This document shows positions 9,741-59,744 of a stretch of 64,000 bases of DNA, piece after piece (within the stretch, counting starts at the first letter, position 1; each line of letters begins with the position of its first letter). The stretch is from Oscillospiraceae bacterium (GTDB lineage Bacteria > Bacillota > Clostridia > Oscillospirales > Oscillospiraceae). The notes under the pieces are model-generated. The model ran no database searches. It was given only the letters and a program-made list of their open reading frames with translations, and was not told the DNA's origin. Position numbers and translations under genes: made by a program. The stretch lies in contig SVMF01000012.1 of assembly GCA_015067565.1 (NCBI GenBank), forward strand, positions 3,059 to 67,058, given 5' to 3'.

Positions 9741-12700
9741 ATGAAAAAGCACTGTTTATCCAGCCGATTGCTTGCATTTCTCTTAATGATTGCAATCGCA
9801 CTGTCGATGCTCCCGAGCGTGACGGTATTTGCGGCCACGGGAACCTTGACTCGCAACACCGCTGTTCGCCATGTCGTGTGCGAGCAACTGTCCACCAAAG
9901 CCAAAGCCTATTACACGGGTTCTAATGTGTACGAGAGTCTTTCGCAGCTCAGTGGTGTTTCTGCTCCGACCAATAGCTATACCGCTACGCAGAACAATCC
10001 TCTGTACACAGCACTGCAAACGCTGATGACGGATACGCAGCAAAAGATCAGCGAGTATAACCCCAGCGGTGAAACCAATACTGAGCTGAGCTACCTCTGG
10101 GATTACACAGACGCTTCTGCCGGTTCCAATGAATACCTGTATTTCTACACAGACATTCCGGCCGATGATTATGGTACAAGTGAATTGCAGCGAGAGCATA
10201 TCTGGCCAAGATCAAGAGCTTCCTTTGACTATCTCAACGGAGGCGCAGATCTTCACCACCTGCGCCCATCTATCGGTACGGTCAACAGTGCAAAGAGTGA
10301 CCATCGCTTTGCAAATGTCCGCAATAACTACAGCACCTATAGTACTACCACGATTGATGGAAAGGATGTTATTTGGGTCAATGCAAACTCCGGTGTTCTG
10401 GAGGTTCGTGACAATGTCAAGGGCGATATTGCCCGCATTCTGCTGTATGTCTACTGTCGCTGGGCGCAGCCAAATCTTTACTCTGACGTTTCTAATAGCT
10501 ATCTCCCTCCCTTTGATGAAGATGATACATCAAACAACGGCAAACGTATGATCGAAAATTTTGACACTCTGCTGGAATGGATGGAAATGGATCCCGTCGA
10601 CAACTGGGAAATGACAAGAAACGACCAGACAGAAAACTATCAAGGTAACCGCAATGTTTTCATTGACTATCCTGAATTTGCCTGGCTGATGTTTAACGAG
10701 ACCCCTCCCACAACGATGAAAACCCCTTCCGGCAAGGCTGCTTCCGGCAGCAGCGCACCTGCATATGCGATTACCGCAATTTCGAGCAATACCAATTACG
10801 GCACTGTAACCCTCAACGGCAATGTCATTACCGCCACCCCGAAGTCCGGATATGAGGTCTCCGGCTATACGCTGATGAGCGGTACAGCCACGGTTGCTCA
10901 GAACGGCAATGTCTTTACCGTGAACGCATCATCGGATTGTAAGATCCGAATCAATTTCCGTGCCATCACTTATACCATCACAGCCTATGCCAACAATTCT
11001 GCCTACGGCTCTGTGAGTGTCAATGGTTACACGATCACCGCAACGCCAAACGAAGGCTATCAGGTTTCAGGCTACACTCTCATCAGCGGTAGCGCAACTG
11101 TGAGCAGAAACGGCAATATCTTTACATTGACCCCCAAGGCTAACAGTACCGTTCAGATCAACTTCTCCCCCATCGCTTTCAACATCACAGCGACACCGAA
11201 CTACACCTCTTATGGATCCGTCACTGTGGACGGATACACCGTCACAGCCACCCCCAAGGCAGGCTATGAGGTTGTCGGCTATGAGCTTCTGTCCGGTAGC
11301 GCAACGGTGGTGCAGAACGGCAATGTTTTTACCCTCACTCCTACCAGTGATTGCAATATCCAAATTAACTTTGCTAAGATCGTCTATGCGCTCAGCGCAA
11401 CCACCAACAGCAACGCTTACGGCACGGTCAGTATCGACGGCTACATCATCACGGCCATCCCGAATGACGGCTATATCGCCAACGGCTACACCATTGTCAG
11501 TGGTACCGCCACCGTTGTGCAGGACGGCAATACCTTCACCGTCACTCCCACCTCTGACTGTGTAATCCGTATTAATTTCGTCTCCCTGACGGGTTGTACG
11601 ATCGACTTTATTACTCCTGATGGTGTATCGCAAAATCCAATCAGCGGTTATGACGGTGAGACTATCACGCTTCCCACCCCCACCGGAACTCCGAAGGCCG
11701 ACGCTTATGACTACACCTTCCTCGGCTGGACGACCTCCGAGGTGAACAACGCAACCAATGAGCCTACAATTTTGAAGGCAGGCCAAAGCTACATCCTGCA
11801 TGAGAATGTTACGCTATATGCTCTTTACACCTACGCCATCGGCGCAACGAACGAAACACACTATACCCGTGTAACCGACACAAGTAAGCTCAAGGACGGT
11901 GCACAGGTTGTCATCGCTGCACAGGATTCCTCCTATGCCATTGCAACAACGCAGAGCAGCAGTTCTCGCTCTGCCGCTTCAATCACCAAGAACACCTCCA
12001 ATGATACCATCACCTTCAGCGGAAGTGTCTGCGTCTTTACGCTCCGCCCCGGCACCAAGAGCGACACCTGGGCTTTTTATGACAGTACGAACAACGGATA
12101 TATTTATGCTTCCTCATCCAAGAGCAACGCCATGAACACCCAGGCTACGATCAACGATAACTCCTCCTTTACGATCACCTTCTCCACAGACGGTGCCATC
12201 ATAACTGCACAGGGCGCAAATACGATGAACACGATTGGCTTCTACGGATTCTCCTTCTTCTATGCATATTTCACCTGCTACTCCGCCACGAGCAGCAGCA
12301 GAGGCCCTGTTGATCTTTACATGATGACCTCTGTCGGCACGACCTATTATACGACAGTTCTGGAGTCCGTTTGTGAGCACGACTTTGTTGAGGACAAGCG
12401 AATTGAGCCAGACTGCACAACAGCCGGCAAAGCGACCTTCAAATGCACCCTCTGCGGCGAATCCTACGATGAGGAACTCCCCGCATTAGGACACAGCTAT
12501 AGCTACACCTCAACCGTTGCTCCCACCGAGTCCGAACAGGGCTATGACATCTACACCTGCTCCGACTGTGGGCTGACTATGAATCAAAATTATACTCAAC
12601 CCACCGGCTATAATTATCGCGTCGATTTTGTCGTTCCAGAAGGCGTAACCGCACCCGCCTCGATAACCAGCAACAGCATCACCGGAGCAACGCTGCCGAG

Positions 12701-14585
12701 CCTGAACGGAAAGCCCACAAATGATGAAAACAATGCACAGTTCATCGGTTGGTCCGCCGTCAAGATCGACCATTCCGACAAAGAAACCACCTATTATGCC
12801 GCTGGCAGTAAGTTCACTGCAACCGGAAATACTACCTTGTACGCACTTTACAGCTATAAAGTCAGCAGTGGTGTCTGCGATCCCTTTGTTTACGGTGAAA
12901 GCGGAAAATTCGTTTTGGCAGCTGTCATGAACGGAACTTATTATGCCATTCCGAATTCCTTCACCCTCTCGAGCGGTATGATCTATCCCACAGTTATCAC
13001 CGTCGAGAATGGCGAGGTCACCGATCCGAACGCTGCGAATTTTGAAGTCATCCTGACCTATTACACTTCTGGCTATTACACAATAAGCAACGGCAGCAAG
13101 TATCTGGCCTACTCCGGCAGCTCCACCAGTTTTGCTGAAGCAGCAACGACCGCGTACAATTGGCAAATCAGCACCGGTACTCGCGGCACTTGGAGAATCA
13201 GCGAGACAAGCACGACAGGCACTCCCAGAGCGATTGCCTACTATAATCTCAGCACGAGTGCTCCGCGTTTTGGTGTGTATTCAGCGTCCAACCTGACCTC
13301 ATCCTCTACTCTGTTCTACGAAATGGAGATTCTACCGATCAGCGGAATGGGTGCAACGACCTACTACACAACCAGTTTTGAAATTTGTGAACACAAGACA
13401 ACTGAGGCCATCAGACTCGAGGCAACCTGCACCAAGCCCGGCTCCATTACCTACATCTGCACCAACTGTAAGGACGTTGTTTCCACCGAAACCATTCCGA
13501 CCGCCGAGCACAGCTTCACCTACACCAATAACGACGAAGACCATACCATTGGATGCGCAAATTGCAACTACTCCGTCACCGAGCCCCACACATACGAAGA
13601 CGGCAATTGCATCTGCGGTGCAACCGAGGTTGTTGAGCCGACTGAGGAATATGTTGAGACCCTAAAGCCCAGCATGAGCATCGTTGTCGGTGCGGAAATG
13701 AGCGTTGCATTTACCGTCAATCAGTCCATGGTATCCAAGTACGAGAGCTTCTACCTCGTTGTCGAGAAGGATATGGTTGGCGCAGAGCCCAAGACGGTTA
13801 CCTTCGGCTACGGCGAAGGCCAGACGGCTCTGACTCCGATGCCCAATGCAACAAATCCGTTCCTGCACAATGCAAGCTTCACCGGCCTGACCGCAAAGGA
13901 AATGGGCGACGAAATCAGAGCAACGCTGTACTGCGCGGACGCAGAAGGCAACATCTTCTACGGCCCGACACAGACGGACTCCGTCAAGGATTACCTGATG
14001 AGAGGCCTGGATCTGGCAACCAGCACCGATGCAAAGAAGACCATGTATGTCGATATGCTCCGCTATGGTGCAGTCGCACAGACCTACTTCGACTACGACA
14101 CGGACAATCTGGTTACGGACGATCTGACGGAGGAACACCTGACCTACGCAACCACCGAGATCCCCGAGGCAGTCGATGGTTCCAAGGCAGAGGGCGGCCT
14201 CGGCACGCTGAACACCAGCGTCGTTTTGAAGGCAAGAGTCACCCTGACGCTGTCCCATCTGAAGCCGGGTGCAAACCTTGCAAACATGAAGTTCGTTGTC
14301 AAGGACGCACTCGATGGCACTGTTATCAAGGAGCTGCCTGCTTACAACCTCAACCCCGTCATGATTGCAGCAGACTTTGACGATGTTGGCGCAAAGCAGA
14401 TGAGAAGACTCATCACCGTCACTCTGTACGACGGCGACACTGCCATTACCGATACCGTGACCTGGAGCGTTGAGAGCTATGTTGCAAAGACTCGTGCAAC
14501 GAGCACCGACGTAGGCCAGATCGATCTGGTCAACGCAATGCTCACCTATGGTGATGCCGTTGCTGCCTACATGGCAACGCAATAA
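9741..14585 (+). CDS. Protein A: secreted endonuclease I (Bsn/EndA-type) modular surface protein with the conserved C-terminal module
   Basis: Signal peptide; REHIWPRS..DLHHLRP..VNS, KGDIARILLY, QGNRNVFIDYPE. Also four 69-aa repeats, two InlB-B-repeat-like (Listeria-Bacteroides) domains, beta-rich modules, Cys/His repeats, cap and tail. AGGAGG RBS. Confidence 0.88.
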   Translation: MKKHCLSSRLLAFLLMIAIALSMLPSVTVFAATGTLTRNTAVRHVVCEQLSTKAKAYYTGSNVYESLSQLSGVSAPTNSYTATQNNPLYTALQTLMTDTQQKISEYNPSGETNTELSYLWDYTDASAGSNEYLYFYTDIPADDYGTSELQREHIWPRSRASFDYLNGGADLHHLRPSIGTVNSAKSDHRFANVRNNYSTYSTTTIDGKDVIWVNANSGVLEVRDNVKGDIARILLYVYCRWAQPNLYSDVSNSYLPPFDEDDTSNNGKRMIENFDTLLEWMEMDPVDNWEMTRNDQTENYQGNRNVFIDYPEFAWLMFNETPPTTMKTPSGKAASGSSAPAYAITAISSNTNYGTVTLNGNVITATPKSGYEVSGYTLMSGTATVAQNGNVFTVNASSDCKIRINFRAITYTITAYANNSAYGSVSVNGYTITATPNEGYQVSGYTLISGSATVSRNGNIFTLTPKANSTVQINFSPIAFNITATPNYTSYGSVTVDGYTVTATPKAGYEVVGYELLSGSATVVQNGNVFTLTPTSDCNIQINFAKIVYALSATTNSNAYGTVSIDGYIITAIPNDGYIANGYTIVSGTATVVQDGNTFTVTPTSDCVIRINFVSLTGCTIDFITPDGVSQNPISGYDGETITLPTPTGTPKADAYDYTFLGWTTSEVNNATNEPTILKAGQSYILHENVTLYALYTYAIGATNETHYTRVTDTSKLKDGAQVVIAAQDSSYAIATTQSSSSRSAASITKNTSNDTITFSGSVCVFTLRPGTKSDTWAFYDSTNNGYIYASSSKSNAMNTQATINDNSSFTITFSTDGAIITAQGANTMNTIGFYGFSFFYAYFTCYSATSSSRGPVDLYMMTSVGTTYYTTVLESVCEHDFVEDKRIEPDCTTAGKATFKCTLCGESYDEELPALGHSYSYTSTVAPTESEQGYDIYTCSDCGLTMNQNYTQPTGYNYRVDFVVPEGVTAPASITSNSITGATLPSLNGKPTNDENNAQFIGWSAVKIDHSDKETTYYAAGSKFTATGNTTLYALYSYKVSSGVCDPFVYGESGKFVLAAVMNGTYYAIPNSFTLSSGMIYPTVITVENGEVTDPNAANFEVILTYYTSGYYTISNGSKYLAYSGSSTSFAEAATTAYNWQISTGTRGTWRISETSTTGTPRAIAYYNLSTSAPRFGVYSASNLTSSSTLFYEMEILPISGMGATTYYTTSFEICEHKTTEAIRLEATCTKPGSITYICTNCKDVVSTETIPTAEHSFTYTNNDEDHTIGCANCNYSVTEPHTYEDGNCICGATEVVEPTEEYVETLKPSMSIVVGAEMSVAFTVNQSMVSKYESFYLVVEKDMVGAEPKTVTFGYGEGQTALTPMPNATNPFLHNASFTGLTAKEMGDEIRATLYCADAEGNIFYGPTQTDSVKDYLMRGLDLATSTDAKKTMYVDMLRYGAVAQTYFDYDTDNLVTDDLTEEHLTYATTEIPEAVDGSKAEGGLGTLNTSVVLKARVTLTLSHLKPGANLANMKFVVKDALDGTVIKELPAYNLNPVMIAADFDDVGAKQMRRLITVTLYDGDTAITDTVTWSVESYVAKTRATSTDVGQIDLVNAMLTYGDAVAAYMATQ
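10764..11591 (+). repeat. Four tandem 207-bp (69-aa) repeats in protein A
   Basis: Consensus ITA..N..YG.V.V.GY.+TATP..GY.V.GY.L.SG.ATV.QNGN.FT+TP.SDC.I.INF. Confidence 0.9.
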
Positions 14586-14591
14586 GAATAA

Positions 14592-14626
14592 CGGACCCGG
14601 GATAGGCTAAAGCCTGTCCCGGGTTT
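14592..14626. terminator. Hairpin after A (CCCGGGATAGG family)
   Basis: ACCCGGGATAGGCT-AAA-GCCTGTCCCGGGTTTT. Confidence 0.75.
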
Positions 14627-14652
14627 TCGTATGTGTATTTACACGCACCATT

Positions 14653-14677
14653 GTAGGGAACGGCTATGGCCGTCCGC
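14653..14677 (+). repeat. REP-like GTAG-hairpin; second copy at 55545-55567 (minus)
   Basis: GTAG-GGAACGGC-TAT-GGCCGTCC; GTAG plus a short palindrome is the REP architecture. Confidence 0.45.
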
Positions 14678-14890
14678 CGGGAGACCGCTGTATCCCCCTG
14701 TGGATAGCAGGTTTGCAAGGTCGCATGTCATTGTGTGTAAGGTGAGGAATCTGTGTGCTTGTATGTATTCTTCCCTAGTCAAGATTTTTCGGTCATGTTT
14801 TCTCCTTAAAATGAGATGGCATGTGGTGCCTGCAAACGTTTTCCGTGCGACGCGACACTATAAACACGCCACAATATTGTGCGTTACAGT

Positions 14891-14928
14891 AAAACCCGGG
14901 ATAGGCTGGCCTATCCCGGGTTCTTCGG
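14891..14928. terminator. Hairpin after B (CCCGGGATAGG family)
   Basis: AAAACCCGGGATAGG-CTGG-CCTATCCCGGGTT. Confidence 0.8.
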
Positions 14929-14931
14929 TTT

Positions 14932-17900
14932 TTATTGGGTTGCCATGTAGGCAGCAACAGCGTCACCGTAGGTGAGCATTGCGTTGACGAGGTCAATTTG
15001 GCCTGCATCGGTGCTGGTTGCACGAATCTTGGCAACATAGCTCTCAACGCTCCAGGTGACGGTCTGCGTGATCGCCTCTTTTCCGTCATACAAAGTCACC
15101 GAGATCAATCTTCTCATTTGCTTCGCGCCGACATCATCGAAATCTGCACTGACCATAATGCCATTTGTAGTTGCTTCAATTTCCTCGATAATCACGCCCG
15201 TTTTGGCATCCTTGACAACAAACTTCATGTTTTCAACATTCGCTCCCGGCAGTACCGTATTAAGTGACAAGGTGACTCTTGCCTTCAATACGACGCTGGT
15301 ATTGAGGATCTTCTGATTGCCCACGGCATTCGATAAATCCGTTGCATCCGGTAGCGTATTGGTTGCAAAGTCCCTATACTCCTCGGGCAGATCATCCACA
15401 ACGAGATTGTCTTCATTGTAATTGAAATATCTCTGTGCAACAGAGCCGTATGTGAGCATATCCACATACATCGTCTTTTGCGGTTCGGTTGTCGTATCAA
15501 GAGCAAGCCCTCTGATGAGGTAGTTTTTGATGGAATCGGTCTTTGTCGGGCCGTAGTAAATCGTGCCATCGGCAGCTACGGCATAGAGCGTTGCAGAAAT
15601 GGTGTCACCCATTTCCTTAGCCGTGATACCGGTGAAGGCGCAGTTGAACATAAACGGTGTGCCGGTAGCAGGCAGTGCCGTAAACGGTTCATTGCCATCT
15701 GCAAATCCATAAGTCACCTGCTTCTTATCACCATCGAAGACCTCCTTCTCGATGACAAGATAGAAATCCTCATATTGGCCAACCACCGAATTCATGACCG
15801 AGAATGCAACGCTCATTTCAGCACCGACAATGATGGACATGCTTGCCATGAGATCCTTATTATAGTGCACAGCAGCTTCATCCGCACCGCAAATGCACTT
15901 GCCATCTTCGAAGGTGTGGATTTCAGCGATACGATAATCGCAGTTTGCGCAGGAAACTGTGTGCTCCTTTCCGTTATTAGTGTAGCTAAGCTTATGCCCC
16001 AGCGCAGGCTTGACCACAAAGGATTCGGGGATGTCATAAATATAGGTATCATCGGTAAAATAACGCAGGCAATTTTTGCATTGATAATAGCTGCGGTTTC
16101 CATCTTGTGTGCAGGACGGCGACACAGCAGCATAGAAATCTCCATCATGACCCTTGGCCGGGATTTCCTCTGTTGTGATAAAAATCTCACAATCAGCACA
16201 ATAAACTCTCTGCTCGCCGCTTTCTTCACAAGTGGCTTCTCTGTCCACGATCATCGTTTTTTCACTGTGATTGCACAACGCAGCATTGCACCATATGCAG
16301 GTGAAATTCTCAGCCTCGTGCGGACGGAGCTCGGAATAGTCGCAATGATTACATTTGACAATGTGGTTTTCACCGTTGTCGGTGTACACGCAATCGTGAC
16401 CGGTAGCCGCAACTTCGTCTGTGATATAGCTGTCGAAACAGACTCTGCAGGTATGCTTCGTAAAGCCATGTTCCGTGCAGGTCGCAGCCGTTACCTCGGA
16501 TTCATAGCTATGCCCGATGGCTTCGAGAATCTCGCGTTCGATTTCCTCGTTGCATACCAGACAAATGACACTTCTGAAGCCATCCTCGGTGCAGGTTGCT
16601 TCCTGCAGCGTTTCGGTGGTCTCACCGTGACCTAAGGCAGGGATCGTTTCCGTTGCGATCACCGCTTCGCAATCAATGCAGGTGAAGGTTTTCAATCCAT
16701 CTTCCGTGCAGGTCGCAGCCTGTACAGTTTCGTTGGTTTCTCCGTGTCCGGTAGCCGAAATTGCCTCAGTCTTGATCACCTCATCACACACAAGGCAGGT
16801 GATCGTTCTAAGGCCATCTTCAGTACAGGTCGATTCTATGATCGTTTCTTCGGTCTCACCGTGGCCCAGAGCTTCGATTGCTTCGATGTAGCTTTCTCCG
16901 CAAGCACAAGCAAACAGCTTAGTGCCCTCTTCGGTGCAAGTGGGGGCCAGGACGAGAGTTTCTTGGTAGCTGTGTCCCAGCGCATCGGTAGGATCATCTG
17001 TGTAGGTATCGGGGCAATTCTTACAGGTGTAGGTCGTATATCCTTCGTGAGTACAAGTGGGATCTGTTACGACCGCCTCATAATCGTGACCTAATGCCTC
17101 GATCACAATACTTTCTTCATAGCCGCAGGTTTCGCAAACAACGCCCTTGCTTCCCTCTTCGGTGCAGGTCGGCTCTTTGAGCAATGTCTCTGTGCCAAAG
17201 CGATGCCCAAGCGCAGGAACGATCTGTTCCTTTGAGCTTTCGCCACAGTTGGAGCAAGTAGTTGTTGTATAGCCATCGTCCGTGCAGCTCGGCGGCGTCA
17301 CACTCGAGGTATAGGTGTGTCCGAGCGGTTCGACATAGTCCTGATCATATGAATCATTGCAACCATTTTGGCAAGTGTAGGTCGTAAAGCCCTGCTCTGT
17401 GCAGGTCGGAGCCGTCACAACCGCCGAATAGTTATGCGCCAAGGGAGCAATGTATTCGTCATAGTCATAACCACAAACCTTGCAGGTATACAGATGATAA
17501 CCTGGCTGTATGCAGGTCGCAGGCTGCGGTGTTGTTTTGGTAAATGTACATTTTGTATGCGTCGAATCCACAAACGATTCCTGATAGATTGCCAAGAAGG
17601 TCGAATTGCTCTTGCTTGTGGAGTTATAGATCGTAAATGCAGCAAAATGGTTGTTATTAAAATTAGGGGAAATTGCCCCACCGGTATTGTTGCAGACAGG
17701 AATCGTAAGGGACTTTGTCTTGTACGGTTCAATCGTCACACTGAGATTCAGACGTGTATAGTACCCGTTATTCTCAGTTCCGCCGTATGTATAGGTCACA
17801 TCATTATAGGTATAGGTTGAATTGCTTGTGCTGACCGTGCATCTGGACTTATCAACAACAAATCCGCTATACAACTCGATTCGCAGAGATTTAACCCTCG

Positions 17901-19188: not shown

Positions 19189-19322
19189 AATGATCTCCTT
19201 TCCGCAAGGCCGTATGCTTTACAGCCATTGCAAAACAATGCACATTTCGTGCGCAGTCTTATGTTTATTCTATAATCTGCAACCCAGAAAGTCAACTAAT
19301 TTCTGGCAATTTCATAATAATA

Positions 19323-19354
19323 AATCAGGATAGCGCCTCTGCCCTATCCTGATT
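19323..19354. terminator. Hairpin after C
   Basis: AATCAGGATAG...CTATCCTGATT, 11-bp stem. Confidence 0.65.
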
Positions 19355-19370
19355 CGATTCATGTATCCTA

Positions 19371-25300: not shown

Positions 25301-25301
25301 T
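19371..25301 (-). CDS. Protein C: secreted ComEC/Rec2-type metallo-beta-lactamase-fold hydrolase with CBM-like domains, Cys/His stalk and conserved tail
   Basis: Signal peptide from MRKIKQW (25301); VVDGG, SHLHIDH (24552-24569), LLTGD, QIPHHG. Two LFFDF...TIDYLYIG jelly-roll-like domains, one InlB-B-like repeat, ~7 stalk repeats, cap and tail. Confidence 0.8.
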
Positions 25302-25412
25302 AAAAATTCCCCCTGCTTGCATTTCGCTTTATCAGTTTTATACTATCATACGCTCCCCTCTTTTTCAATACTTTTCCATGTTGTATAGCTCTATATTTCA
25401 AGCAACATAAAG

Positions 25413-25444
25413 AACCGGGATAGGTCGAAAGACCTACCCCGGTT
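25413..25444. terminator. Hairpin after D
   Basis: AACCGGGATAGGTC-GAAA-GACCTACCCCGGTT. Confidence 0.7.
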
Positions 25445-38302: not shown

Positions 38303-38304
38303 CA

Positions 38305-41222: not shown

Positions 41223-41429
41223 ACGGATACTTTTGCATTACTTCTGAGCATCATCGGCTCATTGAACTGGGGTCTTGTCGGAATTTTTCAGTTTGACCTT
41301 GTGGCGTGGATCTTCGGCGGTCAGACGGGTGTCATCAGCCGTATTATTTACGCACTGGTCGGCCTGGCTGGAGTCTGGTGCATCAGCTTGCTGTTCCGCA
41401 GAAGAGCACTTGCAACCGATGATATGTAA
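41223..41429 (+). CDS. DUF378-family (YuzA-like) small membrane protein with ACG at the expected start
   Basis: DTFALLLSIIGSLNWGLVGIFQFDLVAWIFGG...RIIYALVGLAG; GGAGG 7 nt before ACG. Confidence 0.8.
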   Translation, partial: TDTFALLLSIIGSLNWGLVGIFQFDLVAWIFGGQTGVISRIIYALVGLAGVWCISLLFRRRALATDDM

Positions 41430-41469
41430 AAATAATCGCCTCTTCTGTGAAGAAGAGGCGATTATTTTC

Positions 41470-42082: not shown

Positions 42083-42117
42083 TATTACATTAGTTAATGT
42101 ATGTGGGAGGTATACAT

Positions 42118-51180: not shown

Positions 51181-51183
51181 CCT

Positions 51184-51222
51184 ACTCCCTACCACCGCAG
51201 AACCTCTGCGGTGGTAGGGAGT
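51184..51222. other. Perfect 17-bp stem-loop between E and F, without a U-tract
   Basis: ACTCCCTACCACCGCAG-AACCT-CTGCGGTGGTAGGGAGT. Confidence 0.75.
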
Positions 51223-51261
51223 CCGCCCCCCTGTAAATTATTTTGATCGTGAGGAATACAT

Positions 51262-54200
51262 ATGAAAAGAATTCTTTCACTTCTGTTGTTGGTTGCCCTT
51301 CTGATCACAACAATACTGCCCGGTGTCCAGACTGCGTATGCTGAGGAAGCTGTTCCTGTCAGGCCCACGAAAGCAGCCTCTTGGGATAATGACGGCGACG
51401 GAACGCTGTCGATCTTATGTATCGGCAACAGCTTCTCTGTCGATATGATGCAATATGTCTACAATATTGCAAAAAACCTCGGCATCAGCAAAATCCACCT
51501 CGGTAACCTCTATATCGGCGGCTGCACGCTGAACAAACACTACACCAATGCAAAAAACGACTCTGCCGCTTATACCTATTACACCAATACCAGCGGCTCA
51601 TGGACAACCACTTCCAGTTATAAGATGAGTAAAGCTTTGACCTCCAGAAGCTGGGACTTTGTTACCATGCAGCAGGCCAGCGGCGACAGCGGCACGGCAA
51701 GCACCTACAACTCTGACCTGACCAACCTGATCAGCTATGTCAAGGGCAAGCTCAATAGCTCCAGCACAAAGCTTGTTTGGCATATGACCTGGGCATATCA
51801 GGGCGGCTCGAGCAAGCTTTCCAATTCCGTCTACTCCAGTCAGACGGATATGTACGACAAGATCATCGCAGCTGTTAAGAGCAAGATTGTAAGCAACAGC
51901 AATTTTAAGATGATTATCCCCAACGGCACGGCGATTCAGAATGCCAGAACCTCTCTGATTAAGGACAACCTCACCAGAGACGGCTATCACCTGAACTATA
52001 ACTTCGGCCGTTACATCGCAGGATTGACCGTCGTCAAGACGCTCACCGGCTTGGATATTAGCAAGGTGACCTATAAACCCGGCAATGTCAACTATGCTCT
52101 GCAGCAAATCGCTATTGAGTCAGCCAATAATGCGGTTGCCTCTCCTTACGCTAAAACGACCTCCGCACACAGCAATGTTGCTACCAGTAAGCTCTACGCA
52201 AGACTCTATCCGAAGCTGACTGCAGGTGGTTACTGGAACTCCGCTAACACCACCTATAACAAAATCATTACCACAGCTTCAAACTCTCCGTATTTTCACT
52301 GCACTGAGCAATTTACAAAGGACACCTTGCCGATGGGCAGTGTCATTAAGGTCTCCAGCGGATATGAATACCGTCCGGATGGCTGGCTCACCGATGCGAA
52401 GCAGGATTCTGCGAACAGACCCGGTATTACGAGCAAATCCTACGCTGTTGCTCTGAACGAATGGTGGGGTGATTGGACAATCCGTGCCTTCAACATTTGC
52501 TCCACTACCGATAATAAGGATATTTCCAAAATGACCGCAGAGCAAATCCATGCGATCTTCCAGATATATGTTCCGATCGAGGATTTGAACACAAAATACT
52601 ACCAGCTCCGACTGAACATCACACCGCTGGCTTATTGGCACTCCTCCAATTCCACACATTACAATAAGCTCATTACCAGTAGTGATATCAACCAGAGATA
52701 TTTCGCTACGCAGCAAATTCCGAAGGCAAATATCCCCAACGGTTCCGTCATCAAGGTCAGCAGCAGTTGGCAGCATCGTCCCGAAGGTTGGGTAAGCAAT
52801 GCTGTGCAAGACAGCAGCACAAGACCTGCCGTTCGTACAGACCGTTCCATTTTGGTCAACAGCACATGGCATGGAAAATTCACGACTCGAGCTTTTAATG
52901 TTTCCAAGCAAGATAATTCCTCTCTGGAAGGTGTTGCACTGTCGACCTTACAGTCTGCGTTTAAGATCTACATCCCTGCATCGAGCCATTCACATACCTA
53001 TTCTACGACGGTAACAAAGGCTGCAACTTGCACGGAAACCGGCATAAAGACACATGCATGCACCGTCTGTGTTTACAGTTACACCGAGACGATCCCTATG
53101 GTTGCTCATACCGAGGTGACCGTCCCCGCCGTACTGCCCACTTGTACAGCCGTTGGCCTTAGCGAAGGCAAGAAGTGCTCTGTCTGTAATGCGGTTCTCG
53201 TTGCGCAGACCGAGTCCCCTGCTCTAGGCCATAACGAGGTTATCGACGATGCAATCGATGCCACCTGTACGGAACCCGGTCTGACCGAAGGCAAACATTG
53301 CTCTATCTGTAACGCGGTCATTGTTGCGCAGGAAGAGGTTGCCGCACTCGGCCATCGATATGACAGCGTGGTAACGGATCCGAACTGCACCGACAGTGGC
53401 TACACCACCTATACCTGCAGTGTCTGTAACGATACTCTCGTGGATAACCAAGTCGATGCACTCGGACACACGGAAGCCATCGACGAAGCTGTTGCGCCGA
53501 CCTGCACCGAAACCGGCCTGACCGAAGGCAAGCATTGTTCTGTCTGCAACGAGGTTCTTCTTGCACAGGAAGAAGTTGCCGCACTCGGCCACAGCTACAA
53601 TACCGTCGTAACGGCTCCCGATTGCACCAACGGTGGCTTCACTACCTATACCTGCAGCGTCTGTTTCGATAGCTATATTGCTGACGAAACCGAGGCCCTC
53701 GGCCATACCGAAGCAATCGATGAAGCTGTTGAGCCGACCTGCACCGAAACCGGTTTGACCGAAGGCAAGCATTGCTCCGTCTGTAACGAGGTGCTTCTTG
53801 CACAGGAAGTAATTCCTGCAGCAGATCACAGCTACGACGAAGGCAAGATCACAACCGAGCCGCTTTGCGGTTCTAACGGTGTCAAGACCTATACCTGCGT
53901 AAACTGCGGTCATGAAAAGAACGAAAGCATCGAAGGCACGATTCACACTGCAGAATATGTTGCAATGGTTGCACCGACCTGCACGGAAGACGGCCTCGAG
54001 GCTCATTACAAGTGCATCTATTGCAAAAAAACCTTCATTGATGAAACGTGCATCTATCCCCTCCCCGTTGAGCATATGGTAATCTCCGCAACTGGTCACG
54101 ACTACGACAAAAATGTTACCGCACCCACCTGCGAGGATAATGGTTATACAACCTATGTCTGCTTCTTCTGCAAAGACACTTATACTGCAGACGAGACGGA

Positions 54201-55287
54201 AGCAATCGGCCACAGCTATACCTATACCGACAATGGTGAGAAGCACACTGTCGGTTGCTCCAACTGCGACTATTCCGTCATCGAGGCACATACCTATGAA
54301 GACGGCAAGTGTATCTGCGGTGCGATCGAGGTTGTCGCGCCCAAGGAAATGTACGTCGAGAGCCTGAAGCCCAGCATGAGCATTGTCGTTGGTGCTGAAA
54401 TGAGCGTTGCATTCACTGTTCAGAATGCAATGGTATCTAACTATGAGAGCTTCTATCTCGTTGTCGAGAAGGAAATGATCGGCGGAGAGTCCAAGACTGT
54501 GATCTTCGGCTACGGCGAAGACCAGACGGCTTTGACCCCGATGCCCAATGCAGCAAATCCGTTCCTGCACAATGCAAGCTTCACCGGCCTGACCGCAAAG
54601 GAAATGGGCGATCAGATCCGTGCAACTCTGTACTGCGTGGATGCAGACGGCACGCTCTATTATGGCCCAACCCAGACAGACTCCATCAAGAGTTACCTGA
54701 TGAGAGGTCTTGACCTTGCAACCTCGACTCCCGAGAAGAAGACGATGTATGTCGATATGCTCCGCTACGGCGCAGTCGCACAGATCTACTTCGGCTACGA
54801 TACGGACAATCTGGTTACGGACGATCTGACGGAGGAGCACCTGAACTCCGCAACCACCGTGATCCCCGAGGCAGTCGATGGTTCCAAGGCAGAGGGCGGC
54901 CTCGGCACGCTGAACACCAGCGTCGTTCTGAAGGCAAGAGTCACCCTGACGCTGTCCCACCTGAAGCCCGGTGCAAACCTTGCAAACATGAAGTTCGTTG
55001 TCAAGGACGCACTCGATGGCACGGTCATCAAGGAGCTGCCTGCTTACAACCTCAACCCCGTCATGGTTGCTGCTGACTTCGACGATGTCGGCGCAAAGCA
55101 GATGAGAAGACTCATCACCGTCACTCTGTACGACGGCGACACTGCCATTACCGATACCGTGACCTGGAGCGTTGAGAGCTATGTTGCAAAGACTCGTGCA
55201 ACGAGCACCGATGCAGGCCAAATTGACCTCGTCAACGCAATGCTCACCTACGGTGACGCTGTTGCTGCCTACATGGCAACCCAATAA
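51262..55287 (+). CDS. Protein F: secreted DUF4886/SGNH-like protein with Cys/His stalk and conserved tail
   Basis: Signal peptide; head closely paralogous to E (GDGTLSILCIGNSFS...RDGYHLNYN.GRYIAGLT); two aromatic-rich modules; ten stalk repeats; cap and tail. Confidence 0.82.
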   Translation: MKRILSLLLLVALLITTILPGVQTAYAEEAVPVRPTKAASWDNDGDGTLSILCIGNSFSVDMMQYVYNIAKNLGISKIHLGNLYIGGCTLNKHYTNAKNDSAAYTYYTNTSGSWTTTSSYKMSKALTSRSWDFVTMQQASGDSGTASTYNSDLTNLISYVKGKLNSSSTKLVWHMTWAYQGGSSKLSNSVYSSQTDMYDKIIAAVKSKIVSNSNFKMIIPNGTAIQNARTSLIKDNLTRDGYHLNYNFGRYIAGLTVVKTLTGLDISKVTYKPGNVNYALQQIAIESANNAVASPYAKTTSAHSNVATSKLYARLYPKLTAGGYWNSANTTYNKIITTASNSPYFHCTEQFTKDTLPMGSVIKVSSGYEYRPDGWLTDAKQDSANRPGITSKSYAVALNEWWGDWTIRAFNICSTTDNKDISKMTAEQIHAIFQIYVPIEDLNTKYYQLRLNITPLAYWHSSNSTHYNKLITSSDINQRYFATQQIPKANIPNGSVIKVSSSWQHRPEGWVSNAVQDSSTRPAVRTDRSILVNSTWHGKFTTRAFNVSKQDNSSLEGVALSTLQSAFKIYIPASSHSHTYSTTVTKAATCTETGIKTHACTVCVYSYTETIPMVAHTEVTVPAVLPTCTAVGLSEGKKCSVCNAVLVAQTESPALGHNEVIDDAIDATCTEPGLTEGKHCSICNAVIVAQEEVAALGHRYDSVVTDPNCTDSGYTTYTCSVCNDTLVDNQVDALGHTEAIDEAVAPTCTETGLTEGKHCSVCNEVLLAQEEVAALGHSYNTVVTAPDCTNGGFTTYTCSVCFDSYIADETEALGHTEAIDEAVEPTCTETGLTEGKHCSVCNEVLLAQEVIPAADHSYDEGKITTEPLCGSNGVKTYTCVNCGHEKNESIEGTIHTAEYVAMVAPTCTEDGLEAHYKCIYCKKTFIDETCIYPLPVEHMVISATGHDYDKNVTAPTCEDNGYTTYVCFFCKDTYTADETEAIGHSYTYTDNGEKHTVGCSNCDYSVIEAHTYEDGKCICGAIEVVAPKEMYVESLKPSMSIVVGAEMSVAFTVQNAMVSNYESFYLVVEKEMIGGESKTVIFGYGEDQTALTPMPNAANPFLHNASFTGLTAKEMGDQIRATLYCVDADGTLYYGPTQTDSIKSYLMRGLDLATSTPEKKTMYVDMLRYGAVAQIYFGYDTDNLVTDDLTEEHLNSATTVIPEAVDGSKAEGGLGTLNTSVVLKARVTLTLSHLKPGANLANMKFVVKDALDGTVIKELPAYNLNPVMVAADFDDVGAKQMRRLITVTLYDGDTAITDTVTWSVESYVAKTRATSTDAGQIDLVNAMLTYGDAVAAYMATQ
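52987..54210 (+). repeat. Ten Cys/His stalk repeats in F, including alternating 41-aa and 38-aa subtypes
   Basis: [33 protein letters not shown] near-identical at ~53470 and ~53707. Confidence 0.9.
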
Positions 55288-56595
55288 AAACCGAAGAACC
55301 CGGGATAGGCCAGCCTATCCCGGGTTTTGCTGTAACGCACAATATTGTGGCGTGTTTATAGAGTCACGTTGTACTGTTCCCGTTTGCGGATACCACATCA
55401 CCATCTCATTATGAGGAGAGAACATGACCGAGAAATCTTGACTAGGGAAGAATACATATAAGCACACAGATTCCTCACCTTACACACAATGACATGCGAC
55501 CTTGCAAACCTGCTATCCACAGGGGGAAACAGTGGTCTCCCGGCGAACGGCCATAGCCGTTCCCTACAATGGTGCGTGTAAATACACATACGAAAACCCG
55601 GGACAGGTTTTAGCCTGTCCCGGGTCCGTTATTCTTATTACGTTGCCATGTAGGCAGCAACGGCATCACCATAGGTGAGCATTGCGTTGACAAGGTCGAT
55701 CTGGCCTGCGTCGGTGCTCGTTGCACGAGTCTTTGCAACATAGCTCTCAACGCTCCAGGTCACAGTGTCCGTGATGGCAGTGTCGCCGTCGTACAGCGTG
55801 ACGGTGATGAGTCTTCTCATCTGCTTTGCGCCGACATCGTCAAAGTCTGCTGCGATCATGACGGGGTTGAGGTTGTAAGCCGGCAGCTCCTTGATGACAG
55901 TGCCATCAAGTGCGTCCTTGACAATGAACTTCATGTTTGCAAGGTTTGCACCGGGCTTCAGATGGGACAGCGTCAGGGTGACTCTTGCCTTCAAAACGAC
56001 GCTGGTGTTCAGCGTGCCGAGGCCGCCCTCTGCCTTGGAGTTGTCAACTGCTTCCGGAGTCTCCATGGTAGCATAAGCCATGTGAGCTTCGGTCAGGTCA
56101 GCGTCAACCAGGTTCTCCGTGTCGTACTGGAAGTAGGTCTGAGCCACCGCGCCGTAGCGGAGCATATCGACATACATGGTCTTCTTTGCATCGGTGCTGG
56201 TTGCCAGATCCAGGCCTCTCATCAGGTAATCCTTGACAGAGTCGGTCTGCGTCGGGCCGTAGAAGATCTTGCCATCTGCATCCACGCAGTACAGAGTTGC
56301 ACGGATCTGATCGCCCATTTCCTTTGCGGTCAGGCCGGCGAAGCTTGCATTGTGCAGGAACGGATTTGCTGCATTGGGCATCGGGGTCAAAGCCGTCTGG
56401 CCTTCGCCGTAGCCGAAGGTCACGGTCTTGGACTCTGCGCCAACCATATCCTTCTCAACGACAAGATAGAAGCTCTCATAGTTGGAAACCAGAGCGTTCG
56501 GAACGGTGAATGCAACGCTCATCTCAGCACCGACAACAATGCTCATGGTCGGCTTCAGCGCCTCAACATATTCTTCAGTCGGCTCAACAACCTCA
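55170..56595 (-). repeat. Right arm of the ~1.4-kb inverted repeat (end of F + spacer + G tail)
   Basis: Reverse complement of ~13625-15050. Confidence 0.9.
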
Positions 56596-59500
56596 ACAGC
56601 ACCGCAGATACATTTGCCGTTTGTGTAGGTATGATTCTCGATCTCGCTGAAATCGCAGTTCTCGCAGGAAACGGTGTGGTTTGCACCGTTGTTGCTATAA
56701 GTACAATTCGTGTGCTCACAGACTGTCTCATTTTCAAGAACGGTTGCGTAGTAAACCGTTGCGCTGCTGTGTGCATAGAGGTATACGGGAGTCTGTTCGC
56801 TGGTATAGGTACGGAACTGATAGCTTCCGGAGTTAAAATAGATCGCCCTGGTACTGTAGCCGACATTCTTAATGACCGCCTGGCCGTTGGAATTGATCGA
56901 CAGAGTCCACAGCGCATTGTCGTTGGATGTGGATGTAGCTGTGTTGAAGCTGCTGTTAGAGCTGCCGGTCATCAGGTACTGGGCGGGCTCCGTGCTCTTC
57001 AGACGAAGTGCATAGTAGTTTCCCACCGCTTCAACGACGATCACATAGTCCTCAGAAACGTCACTCATCGTGGTTCCGTTGAGACTGATACCGCTATTGC
57101 CTAGCTTTATTGCAGCCGAGGTCGTACCGGGCGACGTGCCGTCTGCCAAGAAAACATAAGTAGCATCCTTATTGGCCAGCACATACTCACCTTCCCAGTC
57201 GGACGGAGTCTTCGTAACAAGCTCGAAGCCACTGCTACCTTCGCTGCCGTCGTCACTGACTGCGTAGGTGTACAGAGCGTAAAGCGTCTTTGCGCCTTTG
57301 ACGGTGTAGCTGCTGCCTGCCGTATACACAGTCGGTTTCGTAGTAGTTGCTGTTGTCTGGGCCTCTACCCAGCCGACAAACTGATAGGCATAGGCATTGG
57401 CCGTCGGTTTGCCGCTCGGAGTGGGCAGGGTGATCTCGTCATTGACATAGGCACTCTGGCTCGTGGGCTTCGTCACGCCGTTCGGGACGCTGAAGCCAAT
57501 AGTCACAGGGTAGCCAAGGGCCGGGGTATAGTTGTCCGTATAGCTGTAGGAGCAAACCGTGCAGGTATGCGTGGTATAGCCCTGTGTTGTAGCCGTAGGG
57601 GCGGTCACTACAGACTTATACTCGCAATTATTCGTCACTTTATCGCCACAGGCACAGCTTTGGCTGTGGGTGCCGTTGTTATTCTTGACCCACGTACCGT
57701 AGCTGTGGCCGGTTGCAGGAACGATGTTCTCCTGCTTGGTCATGCCGCAGATGGTGCAGGTATAAGGTGTGTAGCCATCGGTCGTGCAGGTTGCACTGAC
57801 CTTGGTGTCTTCCTTCCAGTTGTGGTTGCAGGAGCTGATGTTGGTGATGTAATAGGTCGTTCCAATCGCACCTGCATACAGAAGAGCTGCCTTCTGACCC
57901 GAGGTGTAGGTAGTAAAGCGAGGAGAGCTGGAGTTATACTGCAGCTTGCCCGTGCTGTAATGGCTGATACCGGTCGTACTCGGAGTCCACAGATAGTTCG
58001 TATCGCTTTCGCTGACGCTCGTCTTGGAGCTATCAAGACCGATGTTCTTTGTGGAAGTAGACTTTAGGTATGCGCCATTTGCGTCCTGGATCGAATAATG
58101 CGAACCAACCTTCGTCAATGTCCAAATATGGCCTGCTGTGGTTGTCTCGATCGTATCGTTTGTGATTGTAACGCTTTCCTGCACAAGGAAGGTTCCGGTG
58201 CCGAGAGTATTGGTCATCAGTACATTTGAAGCATTCGAAGCAATGACATAAGTGCCCGACCAGTCAGAAGGGGTCTGTGTGACAAGGGTATAACGGCCAG
58301 AAACCGCATTTCCCGTAGACTCCACATAGGAGTATACAGCATACAATGTAGTATTGGACGTCAGTGCATACTCCGAACCTGCCGCATATACTGTCGGGCA
58401 GGTCGTCGAGGCTGCACTCATCGCCTTTTCCGCCCAACCGACAAAACGATAGTCCTTTGTTCCTTGAGGAGTTCCGCTCGGCGTTGGTAGGTAAATGCTC
58501 TCTCCTGCGTAGCCGGTCATTGCATTCTGCGTGACACCCGCAGGTACGCTGAATGCAACACTGACAGAGGTCTTTGCAGCAAAGTTGATGCGAACGGTGC
58601 AGTTGCTTGTTGCATTGACGGTGAACACATTGCCGTTCTGCGTCACGGTTGCGCTACCGGAGGTAACGGTATAGTCCTTTGCATAGTAACCGGTCTTCGG
58701 ATAAGCAGTGATACGTTTGCCGGAGAGGCTGACTGTACCGTAGGTTGTATTATTGGAAACAGCATTGATCGTATAGGCGCTGGTCATGCCGCCGGACGGG
58801 GTCGGCATATCCGAAGGTACGGGCTGATCGAACAGCAGCCAAGCGAATTCAGGATAGTCAATGAAGACATTGCGGTTACCCTGGACATTCTCGCACTGGT
58901 CGTTTCTGCACATTTCCCACTCATCGACGGGATCTTCCTCACACCACTGCAAAAGGGTGTCGAGACTCTCAATGACCTTATCACCATTGTTTCCTCCGTC
59001 ATCACCGGAGACCTGCTTAGGATTTGGATCCTTTTCAAAGAGGTTCGGCTCCTGCCAACGGCAATAAACATAGAGTAAAATACGGGCAACGTCGCCCTTG
59101 ATATTATCATTGATCTCAACCAGGCCAACACAGTCATTTTCTCTATAAGTTGCATCATAATAGAGTACATCTACTCCGTTGTATTGCTTCGTCGTGTAGC
59201 CGGAGACCACACCGCGAACATTACCCATCGTATGATTGCCACGCTTGCTGTTAACGTCGGTATTCGTAGGACGCAGGTGGTGCAAGTCGCTGCCTGCATT
59301 GCTCTCAAAGAACGAGCCACGGCTCTTCGGCCACACATGCTCGCGGTTATAGCTCGAGGAGACCACATCACTGTAGAACAAAACCGCATCAGAGGAACCA
59401 TTATTTGCATCCGTCTTGGGCCAGTAGTCTAAGAGGCTACTGTAAGAGACACTCTTCGTCATCGTCGAGCTCATCAGGTTCGACAGCTTTTGGAACATCT

Positions 59501-59744
59501 GACTGTCTACGGTATCCAGACAGCTTTCCGAACCCGGAGCATAAGACGACAATACCTCAAATGTATTGTTGCCAGTATAATACTCCTCAGCCTGGGCGCT
59601 CAGCTCAGTGCAAATCTCGTGTCGAACACCGGTGTTCTTAACCAGCGTGCCAGTGGCTGCTGAAACATTCACTGACGGCAGCGCAGAAATAAGCATCACC
59701 AGAATCAGCACGATTGCAGTCATCCGCTTTGCATAAATCTTCAT
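55638..59744 (-). CDS. Protein G: secreted endonuclease I modular surface protein, paralogue of A
   Basis: Signal peptide; NREHVWPKS..DLHHLRPT...VNSKRGN, KGDVARILLY, QGNRNVFIDYPE. One 69-aa repeat, two InlB-B-like domains, Cys/His repeats, cap and tail. Confidence 0.88.
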   Translation of the reverse strand: MKIYAKRMTAIVLILVMLISALPSVNVSAATGTLVKNTGVRHEICTELSAQAEEYYTGNNTFEVLSSYAPGSESCLDTVDSQMFQKLSNLMSSTMTKSVSYSSLLDYWPKTDANNGSSDAVLFYSDVVSSSYNREHVWPKSRGSFFESNAGSDLHHLRPTNTDVNSKRGNHTMGNVRGVVSGYTTKQYNGVDVLYYDATYRENDCVGLVEINDNIKGDVARILLYVYCRWQEPNLFEKDPNPKQVSGDDGGNNGDKVIESLDTLLQWCEEDPVDEWEMCRNDQCENVQGNRNVFIDYPEFAWLLFDQPVPSDMPTPSGGMTSAYTINAVSNNTTYGTVSLSGKRITAYPKTGYYAKDYTVTSGSATVTQNGNVFTVNATSNCTVRINFAAKTSVSVAFSVPAGVTQNAMTGYAGESIYLPTPSGTPQGTKDYRFVGWAEKAMSAASTTCPTVYAAGSEYALTSNTTLYAVYSYVESTGNAVSGRYTLVTQTPSDWSGTYVIASNASNVLMTNTLGTGTFLVQESVTITNDTIETTTAGHIWTLTKVGSHYSIQDANGAYLKSTSTKNIGLDSSKTSVSESDTNYLWTPSTTGISHYSTGKLQYNSSSPRFTTYTSGQKAALLYAGAIGTTYYITNISSCNHNWKEDTKVSATCTTDGYTPYTCTICGMTKQENIVPATGHSYGTWVKNNNGTHSQSCACGDKVTNNCEYKSVVTAPTATTQGYTTHTCTVCSYSYTDNYTPALGYPVTIGFSVPNGVTKPTSQSAYVNDEITLPTPSGKPTANAYAYQFVGWVEAQTTATTTKPTVYTAGSSYTVKGAKTLYALYTYAVSDDGSEGSSGFELVTKTPSDWEGEYVLANKDATYVFLADGTSPGTTSAAIKLGNSGISLNGTTMSDVSEDYVIVVEAVGNYYALRLKSTEPAQYLMTGSSNSSFNTATSTSNDNALWTLSINSNGQAVIKNVGYSTRAIYFNSGSYQFRTYTSEQTPVYLYAHSSATVYYATVLENETVCEHTNCTYSNNGANHTVSCENCDFSEIENHTYTNGKCICGAVEVVEPTEEYVEALKPTMSIVVGAEMSVAFTVPNALVSNYESFYLVVEKDMVGAESKTVTFGYGEGQTALTPMPNAANPFLHNASFAGLTAKEMGDQIRATLYCVDADGKIFYGPTQTDSVKDYLMRGLDLATSTDAKKTMYVDMLRYGAVAQTYFQYDTENLVDADLTEAHMAYATMETPEAVDNSKAEGGLGTLNTSVVLKARVTLTLSHLKPGANLANMKFIVKDALDGTVIKELPAYNLNPVMIAADFDDVGAKQMRRLITVTLYDGDTAITDTVTWSVESYVAKTRATSTDAGQIDLVNAMLTYGDAVAAYMAT

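Follow-up and report, generated by a model that had tools for sequence, protein, structure and literature searches.

A Tandem Sandwich-and-Hairpin Domain at the C-Terminus of Giant Secreted Clostridial Proteins as a Candidate Cell-Surface Address Module

Introduction

Seven giant genes, designated A to G, are harbored by a 64,000-nucleotide stretch of an Oscillospiraceae genome (contig SVMF01000012.1, hereafter the window), and their secreted products all terminate in one common domain of about 310 residues, which is termed the tail. The tail defines a family of extracellular domains, lacking annotation, in the class Clostridia, and it is proposed to serve as a non-covalent cell-surface retention ('address') module with a lineage-specific receptor, a reading drawn from sequence comparison and considered about equally likely to be right or wrong.

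The Tail and Its Predicted Fold

The original prediction, made from the letters of the window, had described seven open reading frames (ORFs) with signal peptides and one common C-terminal module. This description was confirmed, the module measuring about 310 residues with pairwise identities of 52-92% among the seven copies, and the boundaries given for it were shifted, so that the tails now start about 20 nucleotides upstream of the earlier positions. The coordinates are as follows.

Tail of A: 13653..14582, plus strand; 310 residues, the reference copy, with repeat 1 at residues 1-152 and repeat 2 at residues 160-310
Tail of B: 14935..15864, minus strand; mosaic
Tail of C: 19374..20306, minus strand; A/C/F/G class
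Tail of D: 25460..26392, minus strand; divergent class, 52-69% identical to the other tails
Tail of E: 50263..51177, plus strand; most divergent, 52-57% identical to the other tails
Tail of F: 54355..55284, plus strand; A/C/F/G class
Tail of G: 55641..56570, minus strand; A/C/F/G class

The seven tails can be aligned over their full length almost without gaps, with 123 invariant columns and a mean column identity of 80%, and the tail profile assigns family members 575-613 bits, which places the likeness far beyond chance. Each tail is composed of two tandem repeats of about 150 residues (hhalign probability 98.9%, E 4e-17), the first of which is characterized by the motif AKEM...S[IV]K.Y...DML.YGAAQ.YF and the second by GAKQMR...SVESYV...AML.YGD..AAY. 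AlphaFold2 modelled the whole tail, on the basis of a 34-sequence alignment, with a mean pLDDT of 95.2 and a pTM of 0.88, and a single repeat with a pLDDT of 96.0. The repeat unit is predicted to be an immunoglobulin (Ig)-like beta-sandwich of about 105 residues succeeded by a two-helix hairpin, this unit being present twice, and the pTM of 0.88 over 310 residues suggests that the two repeats would pack as one compact unit. Across the family, conservation peaks in the AKEM loop, in the second helix of repeat 1 (D134 M135 L136 x Y138 G139 A140 x A142 Q143), and in the helices of repeat 2 (S272-x-E274-S-Y276 and Y299-G-D301). The family was accordingly given a working definition that comprises two sandwich-plus-hairpin repeats, the motifs, a location at the extreme C-terminus and a signal peptide, all of which are displayed by the seven window proteins.

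Searches Against Known Families, Folds and Mobile Elements

Full-text searching of the literature yielded no description of the domain, and the tail-bearing relatives are named 'hypothetical protein' by NCBI and JGI (e.g. MBE6984248.1), with one 'uncharacterized Zn finger protein' among them. Three tails gave no match in Pfam at E<=10 and none in NCBIfam at E<=1. The PHROGs search returned no real match, its one noise-level hit for the tail of E (E 0.0074) having zero qualifying stretches, and tail profiles of 7 and 34 sequences found only noise among PDB sequences, at E>=0.04. The novelty that had been put forward for the module in these libraries thus stands.

At the level of structure, Foldseek retrieved for the whole tail only generic antibody- and FN3-like sandwiches from PDB and BFVD, with a template-modelling (TM) score of about 0.2, and for a single repeat antibody V-set and FN3 domains from PDB with a probability of about 1.0 but TM scores of 0.3-0.4. 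The module belongs to the Ig-like/FN3-like superfold in the sense that its likeness lies at the fold level and leaves out the helical hairpin; in the model, the sandwich is Ig-like and the whole module is without a specific solved relative, and no viral one was retrieved either. A specific kinship to a solved anchor, carbohydrate-binding module (CBM) or phage fibre domain was rejected, as the Foldseek matches were generic only.

The absence of LPXTG, SLH, dockerin and a C-terminal transmembrane helix, which had been stated beforehand, was borne out by Pfam scans together with motif and hydrophobicity checks. SLH (PF00395) found no match in three tails at E<=10 or in the seven whole proteins, and the same Pfam scan detected SLH in nearby proteins of related metagenome-assembled genomes (MAGs). 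LPXTG was found near the C-terminus of none of the seven window proteins and none of 117 family representatives. No C-terminal transmembrane helix was found in the seven proteins, whose only hydrophobic segment is the signal peptide, bar a marginal single-window peak at residue 1113 of B, which lies in its tail. Dockerin (PF00404) matched neither the tails (E<=10) nor 76 scanned family members, and the alignment contains no DxDxD-type loops; CWB2 (PF04122) and choline-binding repeats (PF01473) were likewise missing from the tails (E<=10) and from the 76 members (1e-5). The type IX secretion system's C-terminal domain (T9SS CTD; TIGR04183 / Por_Secre_tail) gave no NCBIfam match at E<=1 and no Pfam match at E<=10. 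CBM37 was not recognised among the returned matches, the presence of a CBM37 profile in the libraries being unchecked.

A phage or plasmid origin of the tail was also rejected, given two viral records and zero plasmids. All plasmids of PLSDB were searched by tblastn with an R. flavefaciens tail as query, and no tail was found. In viral collections, the tail occurs in one of 2.9 million IMG/VR contigs and in one unannotated record. The former, L080 (IMGVR_UViG_3300018494_004903, from JGI metagenome 3300018494), encodes a tail-bearing protein of 1588 residues (ORF 1292-6058), and the latter, MT838250.1, is an unannotated 5.5-kb human-faecal 'Bacteriophage sp.' contig bearing a tail at 26.5% identity (3888-4781). 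Both records are probably bacterial or prophage-flanking DNA.

Distribution, Position and Heads of the Family

An exhaustive hidden Markov model search over 1.84 billion cluster representatives (clusters at 50% identity) revealed 4911 proteins matching the family at E<=1e-3 and 2391 at E<=1e-10. Position statistics were derived from 117 listed representatives of at least 600 residues each. The module ends less than 10 residues from the C-terminus in 115 of them, and 98 (about 84%) possess signal-peptide-like N-termini, the rest appearing N-terminally truncated, in keeping with the secreted, terminal placement that had been proposed. Tail-bearing members can be as short as about 550 residues. 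Two related proteins, P0150 (1781 residues) and P0153 (1910 residues), end in a linker just past repeat 1 and represent tails with one repeat or else truncated genes.

Pfam scans of 76 diverse family members disclosed a broad collection of heads, including BspA-type LRR_5 (13 members), Endonuclease_1, EEP, 5'-nucleotidase, metallo-beta-lactamase, GH53, GH5, DUF4886/GDSL esterases, NAGPA, papain-like protease, CHAP, CAP, lectin, CBM26, VWA and PI-PLC; SLH, Gram-positive anchor, dockerin and choline-binding repeats were detected in none of these 76. The interpretation as a polymorphic toxin was rejected, because in the present family it is the C-terminus that is constant and the N-terminus that varies.

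A taxonomic search, in which each species was represented by a single genome, confirmed 457 stretches, and the 76 loci kept all belong to Clostridia. The tail-bearing Clostridia include Oscillospiraceae, Ruminococcaceae, Faecousia and Lachnospiraceae, human-gut MAGs being among them. In the cultured strain Ruminococcus flavefaciens ND2009, three tandem DUF285/LRR genes each end in a full tail, which is also present in R. flavefaciens UBA2946, and no dockerins were found in the tail-bearing proteins of R. flavefaciens.

Stalk Units and the Slot in Common with SLH

Upstream of the tail lies a stalk of Cys3His units of about 40 residues (ALGH...PTCTE.GY...C..C), which occur up to about 10 in a row in B (15865-17514), C (20307-21371), D (26852-27889) and F (53014-54354) and which are seen also in the loci L047, L051 and L020. 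A characteristic last unit, ending in E.HTY.DG.C.CGA, precedes the tail in six of the seven window proteins. The units belong to no Pfam family, a few members giving sporadic weak Zn-ribbon matches, and the arrays probably form an extracellular Zn-ribbon stalk. Within the stalk of F, a tandem 237-nucleotide direct repeat of 74% identity (53220-53693) points to a recent unit duplication.

The stalk adjoins the anchor segment in tail-bearing and SLH-bearing proteins alike. Six secreted proteins ending in SLH were collected for comparison from tail-carrying MAGs (SIG473, Faecousia and RGIG2672), namely a subtilase, an amylase/pullulanase, a GH25 protein, two BspA LRR proteins and one without a recognised head. 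Five of them carry three SLH copies, and the GH25 protein of RGIG2672 showed one; Zn-ribbon-like units precede SLH in five of the six, the LRR protein of L003 lacking the motif. The exchange is most directly visible in the Faecousia locus L051 (JBJDYD010000171.1; 99-5270 and 5399-10891), where two tandem amylase/pullulanase paralogues are 72% identical over 1457 residues, from the signal peptide into the first Zn unit, after which one (1723 residues) continues with more Zn units and three SLH copies and the other (1830 residues) with a terminal Zn unit and the tail. The SLH-LRR and SLH-subtilase proteins too have tail-carrying paralogues. SLH triplets are a non-covalent tether of proteins to secondary wall polymers, and the equivalence of the slot behind the same stalk suggests that the tail does an equivalent job. 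Since the related lineages already own SLH anchors, the tail would be a second address and not the sole one.

Concerted Evolution of the Tails

The heads and the tails of these proteins have followed different courses. The heads of A, B, D, E and F (first 600 residues) have orthologues in other genomes at 62-82% identity, whereas the tails that these orthologues carry match those of the window at only 42-53% identity. In a tree built from 56 tails of seven genomes, the tails group by genome, all seven of the window, all 30 of SIG473 and all six of Faecousia being monophyletic, and for 55 of the 56 the closest tail belongs to the same genome. The tails thus diverge between lineages faster than the heads and stay alike within a genome, which fits one lineage-specific partner per cell; neither a binding module matched to a substrate nor a chaperone specific to a head would be expected to behave in this way.

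Within the window, the tails of the A/C/F/G class share 87-90% nucleotide identity with a synonymous divergence (dS) of 0.33-0.44, and those of B, D and E represent older classes. The ratio of nonsynonymous to synonymous divergence (dN/dS) of the tails is 0.12-0.27, which indicates that they are constrained by purifying selection. The tail of B is a mosaic, in which the last 75 residues or so (about 14935-15156) are of the A/C/F/G class and the remainder is 64-69% identical to the other tails; judged from the alignment, its C-terminal quarter is a gene-conversion tract. Moreover, the spacer between the convergent genes A and B (14586..14931) is duplicated in inverted orientation between F and G (55288-55637). 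The junction repeats, which pair 13729-14819 with 55401-56491 (92% over 1091 nucleotides) and 14821-15156 with 55063-55398 (87%), extend beyond the stop codons, so that the whole tail-spacer-tail junction is a segmental duplicate. Mosaic tracts and junction duplication together argue for gene conversion plus segmental exchange. It may be added that the inverted repeats, of about 1.1 kb and 40 kb apart, could permit inversion of the segment between them.

The number of tails per cell appears to be considerable. At least 30 distinct tails were counted in the fetched loci of MAG SIG473, and seven more representatives (P0054-P0060) carry window-class tails on heads absent from the window. In four faecal metagenomes, the k-mer depth of locus-unique DNA was 16-26 and that of the A- and C-tail regions 130-530 (8-27x). 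In addition, short-read unitigs and JGI/ENA contigs break at the A/C-class tails (window 12000-21000), while the divergent D and E tails assemble through, in contigs of about 34.5 kb. The raised depth and the unitig breaks imply that many further tails of nearly identical sequence exist in the organism or its community.

Possible Role of the Tail

Under the favoured explanation, the proteins would be exported by the Sec pathway via the N-terminal signal peptide, and the tail, emerging last, would fold as a single compact unit and bind a lineage-specific component of the cell's own envelope. A secondary wall glycopolymer would be the most likely ligand, and otherwise a wall-bound receptor protein; the Zn-ribbon-like stalk would then keep the variable head, be it a nuclease, glycosidase, esterase, protease or LRR adhesin, off the wall. 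Binding to the envelope and the identity of the ligand are what we infer from these patterns. The original prediction of a new anchoring or docking tag is accordingly sustained in part, as the swap with SLH in one slot, the concerted evolution and the absence of known anchors from the 76 scanned members speak for it, and the acidity of the tails and the want of an adjoining scaffold gene speak against it.

Several observations weigh against retention at the surface. The tails are acidic, with a pI of about 4.5 and a net charge of -15 to -18 (family median pI 4.46), and classical modules that bind anionic wall polymers are basic. Clustering of the ORFs at 79 loci exposed no conserved partner, receptor or processing gene beside the tail genes. 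The predicted fold, for which only generic Ig/FN3 matches were obtained, is uninformative on ligand or function, and the near-absence of the tail from phages means that endolysins have not borrowed it, unlike several wall-binding domains. Furthermore, a second wall anchor is not strictly needed by lineages that have SLH, and the SLH/tail pair could denote two destinations, one of which is perhaps not the cell, and the proteins may be released and not cell-bound. The possession of SLH by these lineages may also mean that the tail targets a different layer or a protein receptor.

The tail might instead dock to a protein, either a scaffold or receptor in the cohesin-dockerin style or other tails in a lattice or oligomer, with the heads forming a multi-enzyme coat. 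This is possible, though on balance unlikely. The internal duplication produces a pseudo-dimeric unit (hhalign 98.9%, pTM 0.88), which suggests descent from a homodimer and a tendency of the surface to self-associate, and P0150 and P0153, which end after repeat 1, could complete the unit by pairing. Acidic tails would also agree with docking, since they resemble, by general knowledge, dockerins and S-layer proteins; the Ig-like module with helices behind it loosely recalls X-module-dockerin pairs; the copy number per genome is high; and concerted evolution would be expected if tails must match each other or one scaffold. Against this, no scaffold-like gene with repeated receptor modules stands beside the tail genes at the 79 loci, neither Ca-binding dockerin motifs nor a Pfam dockerin or cohesin match was found, and the tail classes within one genome fall as low as 52-57% identity, of which a strict lattice would be expected to be less tolerant. 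A more specific form of this thought, namely that the tails co-assemble, whether mutually or upon a base layer anchored by SLH, to build a 'polymorphic S-layer' or multi-enzyme coat specific to the genome, in which their concerted evolution would act as a compatibility code, is regarded as rather improbable.

Two further explanations look outside the envelope or to the route of export. That the tail is a lectin- or CBM-like domain for an external target, such as dietary fibre, host mucus or other microbes, would suit the Ig-like beta-sandwich as a common carbohydrate-binding scaffold, the life of these organisms on plant fibre in goat and sheep guts and the glycosidases among the heads, and the SLH/tail amylase pair could then be the cell-bound and the substrate-bound version of one enzyme. 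Yet one tail is found on nucleases, proteases, esterases, CAP proteins and LRR adhesins, which have no common substrate; orthologous heads bear divergent tails that cluster by genome and not by head, the opposite of a substrate-matched module; and the terminal position behind a stalk is that of anchors, which renders the explanation very unlikely. A C-terminal domain for export, sorting or intramolecular chaperoning, perhaps removed later in the manner of T9SS CTDs or tailspike chaperones, is given slightly less credence still. It would account for the strictly C-terminal location, mostly on very large proteins, for the strong purifying selection and, with one genome-specific machine, for the concerted evolution, but the members already have Sec signal peptides, members of about 550 residues carry the tail as well, no conserved machinery genes lie nearby at the 79 loci, the outermost C-terminal residues vary, a conserved cleavage motif between stalk and tail is missing, and the tail swaps among unrelated heads and with SLH, which argues against a head-specific chaperone. 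Retention at the cell surface by a lineage-specific receptor is the explanation favoured here.

Comparison with Known Surface Systems

A constant C-terminal address on variable extracellular heads is a known arrangement, and it is the domain, the combination of folds and the presumed receptor that are new. The SLH triplet (PF00395) resembles the tail in being a C-terminal, non-covalent address of Sec-exported proteins with many heads, LRR_5 and subtilase heads occurring with either of them, but the two have no relation in sequence or fold, as SLH consists of three mainly helical repeats of about 55 residues and the tail of two sandwich-plus-hairpin repeats; SLH, moreover, binds a pyruvylated wall polymer and is usually basic, in contrast with the acidic tail. 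CWB2 (PF04122) of Clostridioides difficile defines some 30 paralogous surface proteins in one genome, furnished with one repeated wall-binding module and variable domains, a logic that recurs in the at least 30 tail-bearing proteins of MAG SIG473. CWB2 is a three-repeat alpha/beta module, N- or C-terminal, that binds the PSII polymer, and the tail differs by giving no Pfam match to CWB2 and by its other predicted fold.

The dockerin or X-module-dockerin (PF00404) is likewise a constant terminal tag on variable Clostridia enzymes, being duplicated, acidic, helical and species-specific, and it often follows an Ig-like X module; the concerted evolution of the tail fits this species-specific pattern. 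The tail, however, is four to five times larger, is devoid of Ca-binding loops and has no cohesin-like partner at the 79 loci.

The best functional analogue of the tail is CBM37, a module of about 100 residues. In R. albus, a rumen bacterium of the same order, CBM37 exists in many copies and is borne by numerous unrelated enzymes, mostly ones that lack a dockerin; it was shown to attach enzymes to the bacterial surface, binds many polysaccharides as well and replaces the dockerins of the R. flavefaciens orthologues (PMC4081043). It was reported to be confined to R. albus, all three of the R. flavefaciens strains analysed being without it (PMC4081043), whereas the tail occurs in R. flavefaciens ND2009, in UBA2946 and in Oscillospiraceae and Lachnospiraceae MAGs. 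CBM37 may further be internal or tandem, whereas the tail comprises 2 x 150 residues, is terminal and is also found on heads other than carbohydrate-active enzymes. The two are set apart by distribution and description.

The T9SS CTD of Bacteroidota is likewise a beta-sandwich and forms the very C-terminus of many large enzymes and adhesins that carry Sec signals, but it measures about 80 residues, and the tail is four times larger and resides in Clostridia. PMC4560394 describes the CTD as a secretion signal across the outer membrane, in whose place a lipid or glycan anchor is installed when it is cleaved off.

Architecture and Genomic Setting of the Seven Genes

The seven ORFs (1341-3027 residues) occupy 38,274 of the 64,000 nucleotides, or 60% of the window, and each product starts with a Sec signal peptide consisting of a basic n-region, a hydrophobic core and an AxA-like site. 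Their layout is listed below.

Gene A: 9741..14585, plus strand; 1614 residues from the ATG (start in the ORF list, TTG 9738); signal peptide, Endonuclease_1 (10104-10676), Flg_new repeats, Zn-ribbon-like units, unnamed domain of about 145 residues (12903-13340), last Zn unit (13428-13652), tail
Gene B: 14932..19188, minus strand; 1418 residues; signal peptide, weak DUF4015-like head (18154-18879), Zn-ribbon-like stalk array (15865-17514), tail
Gene C: 19371..25322, minus strand; 1983 residues; signal peptide, metallo-beta-lactamase head (24171-24728, ComEC-like), stalk array (20307-21371), tail
Gene D: 25457..31456, minus strand; 1999 residues; signal peptide, three copies of the unnamed domain of about 145 residues (30902-31318, 30419-30823 and 29945-30373), stalk units (26852-27889), unnamed stretch of about 150 residues (26393-26839), tail
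Gene E: 42097..51180, plus strand; 3027 residues; signal peptide, DUF4886 head (42271-42993), long beta-rich middle, one Zn unit (50116-50262), tail
Gene F: 51262..55287, plus strand; 1341 residues; signal peptide, DUF4886 head (51412-52134), about 10 Zn-ribbon-like units (53014-54354), tail
Gene G: 55638..59744, minus strand; 1368 residues; signal peptide, Endonuclease_1 head (58848-59360), Flg_new repeat, last Zn unit (56571-56699), tail

The ATG of gene A at 9741 is preceded by the ribosome-binding site GGAGG, and the true starts of C and E are probably their second Met codons, at 25301 and 42118, respectively. The protein P0053 is 99.7% identical to the gene A product over 1614 residues. 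As had been anticipated, the heads are different or paired. All-against-all BLASTP of the seven proteins related the Endonuclease_1 heads of A and G (49% identical) and the SGNH-like DUF4886 heads of E and F (52% identical), and it further revealed short Cys-rich repeats in common to most of the proteins outside their tails. The head of C matches metallo-beta-lactamase in Pfam and, weakly, a ComEC-like PDB entry; that of B matches DUF4015 below the Pfam threshold; and no Pfam family was found in the whole of protein D. The domain of about 145 residues (motif GKFVLAA..NGTYYA.PNSF), which is present three times in D (29945-31318) and once in A (12903-13340) at 37-44% identity, has no Pfam or PDB match, so that D is built almost wholly of unnamed domains; a further unnamed stretch (26393-26839) is inserted before its tail. 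Three of the seven heads are nuclease-like, namely Endonuclease I in A and G and the ComEC-like metallo-beta-lactamase in C, and the locus may serve to display DNases at the cell surface; among the heads of other family members are EEP nucleases and 5'-nucleotidases as well.

The neighbouring genes are those of an ordinary Firmicutes chromosome, including oadB, an M24 peptidase, a HAD phosphatase, a XerC/D-like recombinase, addA/addB, spoIIR, ispE, DUF1015, mgtC, ispH-S1 and plsC. Enrichment metagenomes from goat gut, as well as faecal runs from goats and sheep, contain the same locus, the nearest genomes are uncultured Oscillospiraceae MAGs, and no RNA runs holding the locus were found. About 1 kb upstream of gene A lies the XerC/D-type tyrosine recombinase gene (7834-8781). 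An invertible promoter near it was rejected, as the interval 8782-9740 contains no convincing inverted repeats; an apparent small membrane-protein ORF was discerned there by eye on the minus strand (about 9115-9500). Upstream of gene E, a hairpin with a perfect 18-nucleotide stem and a 4-nucleotide loop (41429-41468) looks like a terminator for the adjoining small genes.

Across the 79 loci, AddAB synteny and other surface proteins were the only recurring neighbours. In related MAGs, addA/addB homologues lie within 10 kb of a tail-bearing gene, as in the window (31594-38252), both being present in L002 and L018 and addA alone in L017 and L056, and the gene adjoining addA/addB in L002 and L018 is the D orthologue. 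This arrangement appears to be older than the split of these genomes, the tails having been homogenised since.

Significance

Oscillospiraceae and Ruminococcaceae count among the most abundant bacteria of the gut and rumen and also among the least cultured, and little is known of the manner in which they display enzymes and adhesins. The tail marks thousands of giant secreted proteins, of which nearly all the named ones are called 'hypothetical protein'. If it is a surface-address tag, it would supply a sequence rule by which the surface proteome of these organisms, composed of nucleases, glycosidases, esterases, proteases and BspA-type adhesins, could be read from metagenomes, and it points to an envelope receptor that differs between lineages. 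The presence of the family in the cultured R. flavefaciens ND2009 and in human-gut MAGs makes the hypothesis directly testable, and the tail is a potential new display tag for anaerobes. The swap between SLH and tail, in conjunction with the concerted evolution, provides a clean case of the exchange of address modules and of kept compatibility; if co-assembly should be true, the tail-bearing proteins would represent a third Gram-positive surface architecture beside cellulosomes and classical S-layers.

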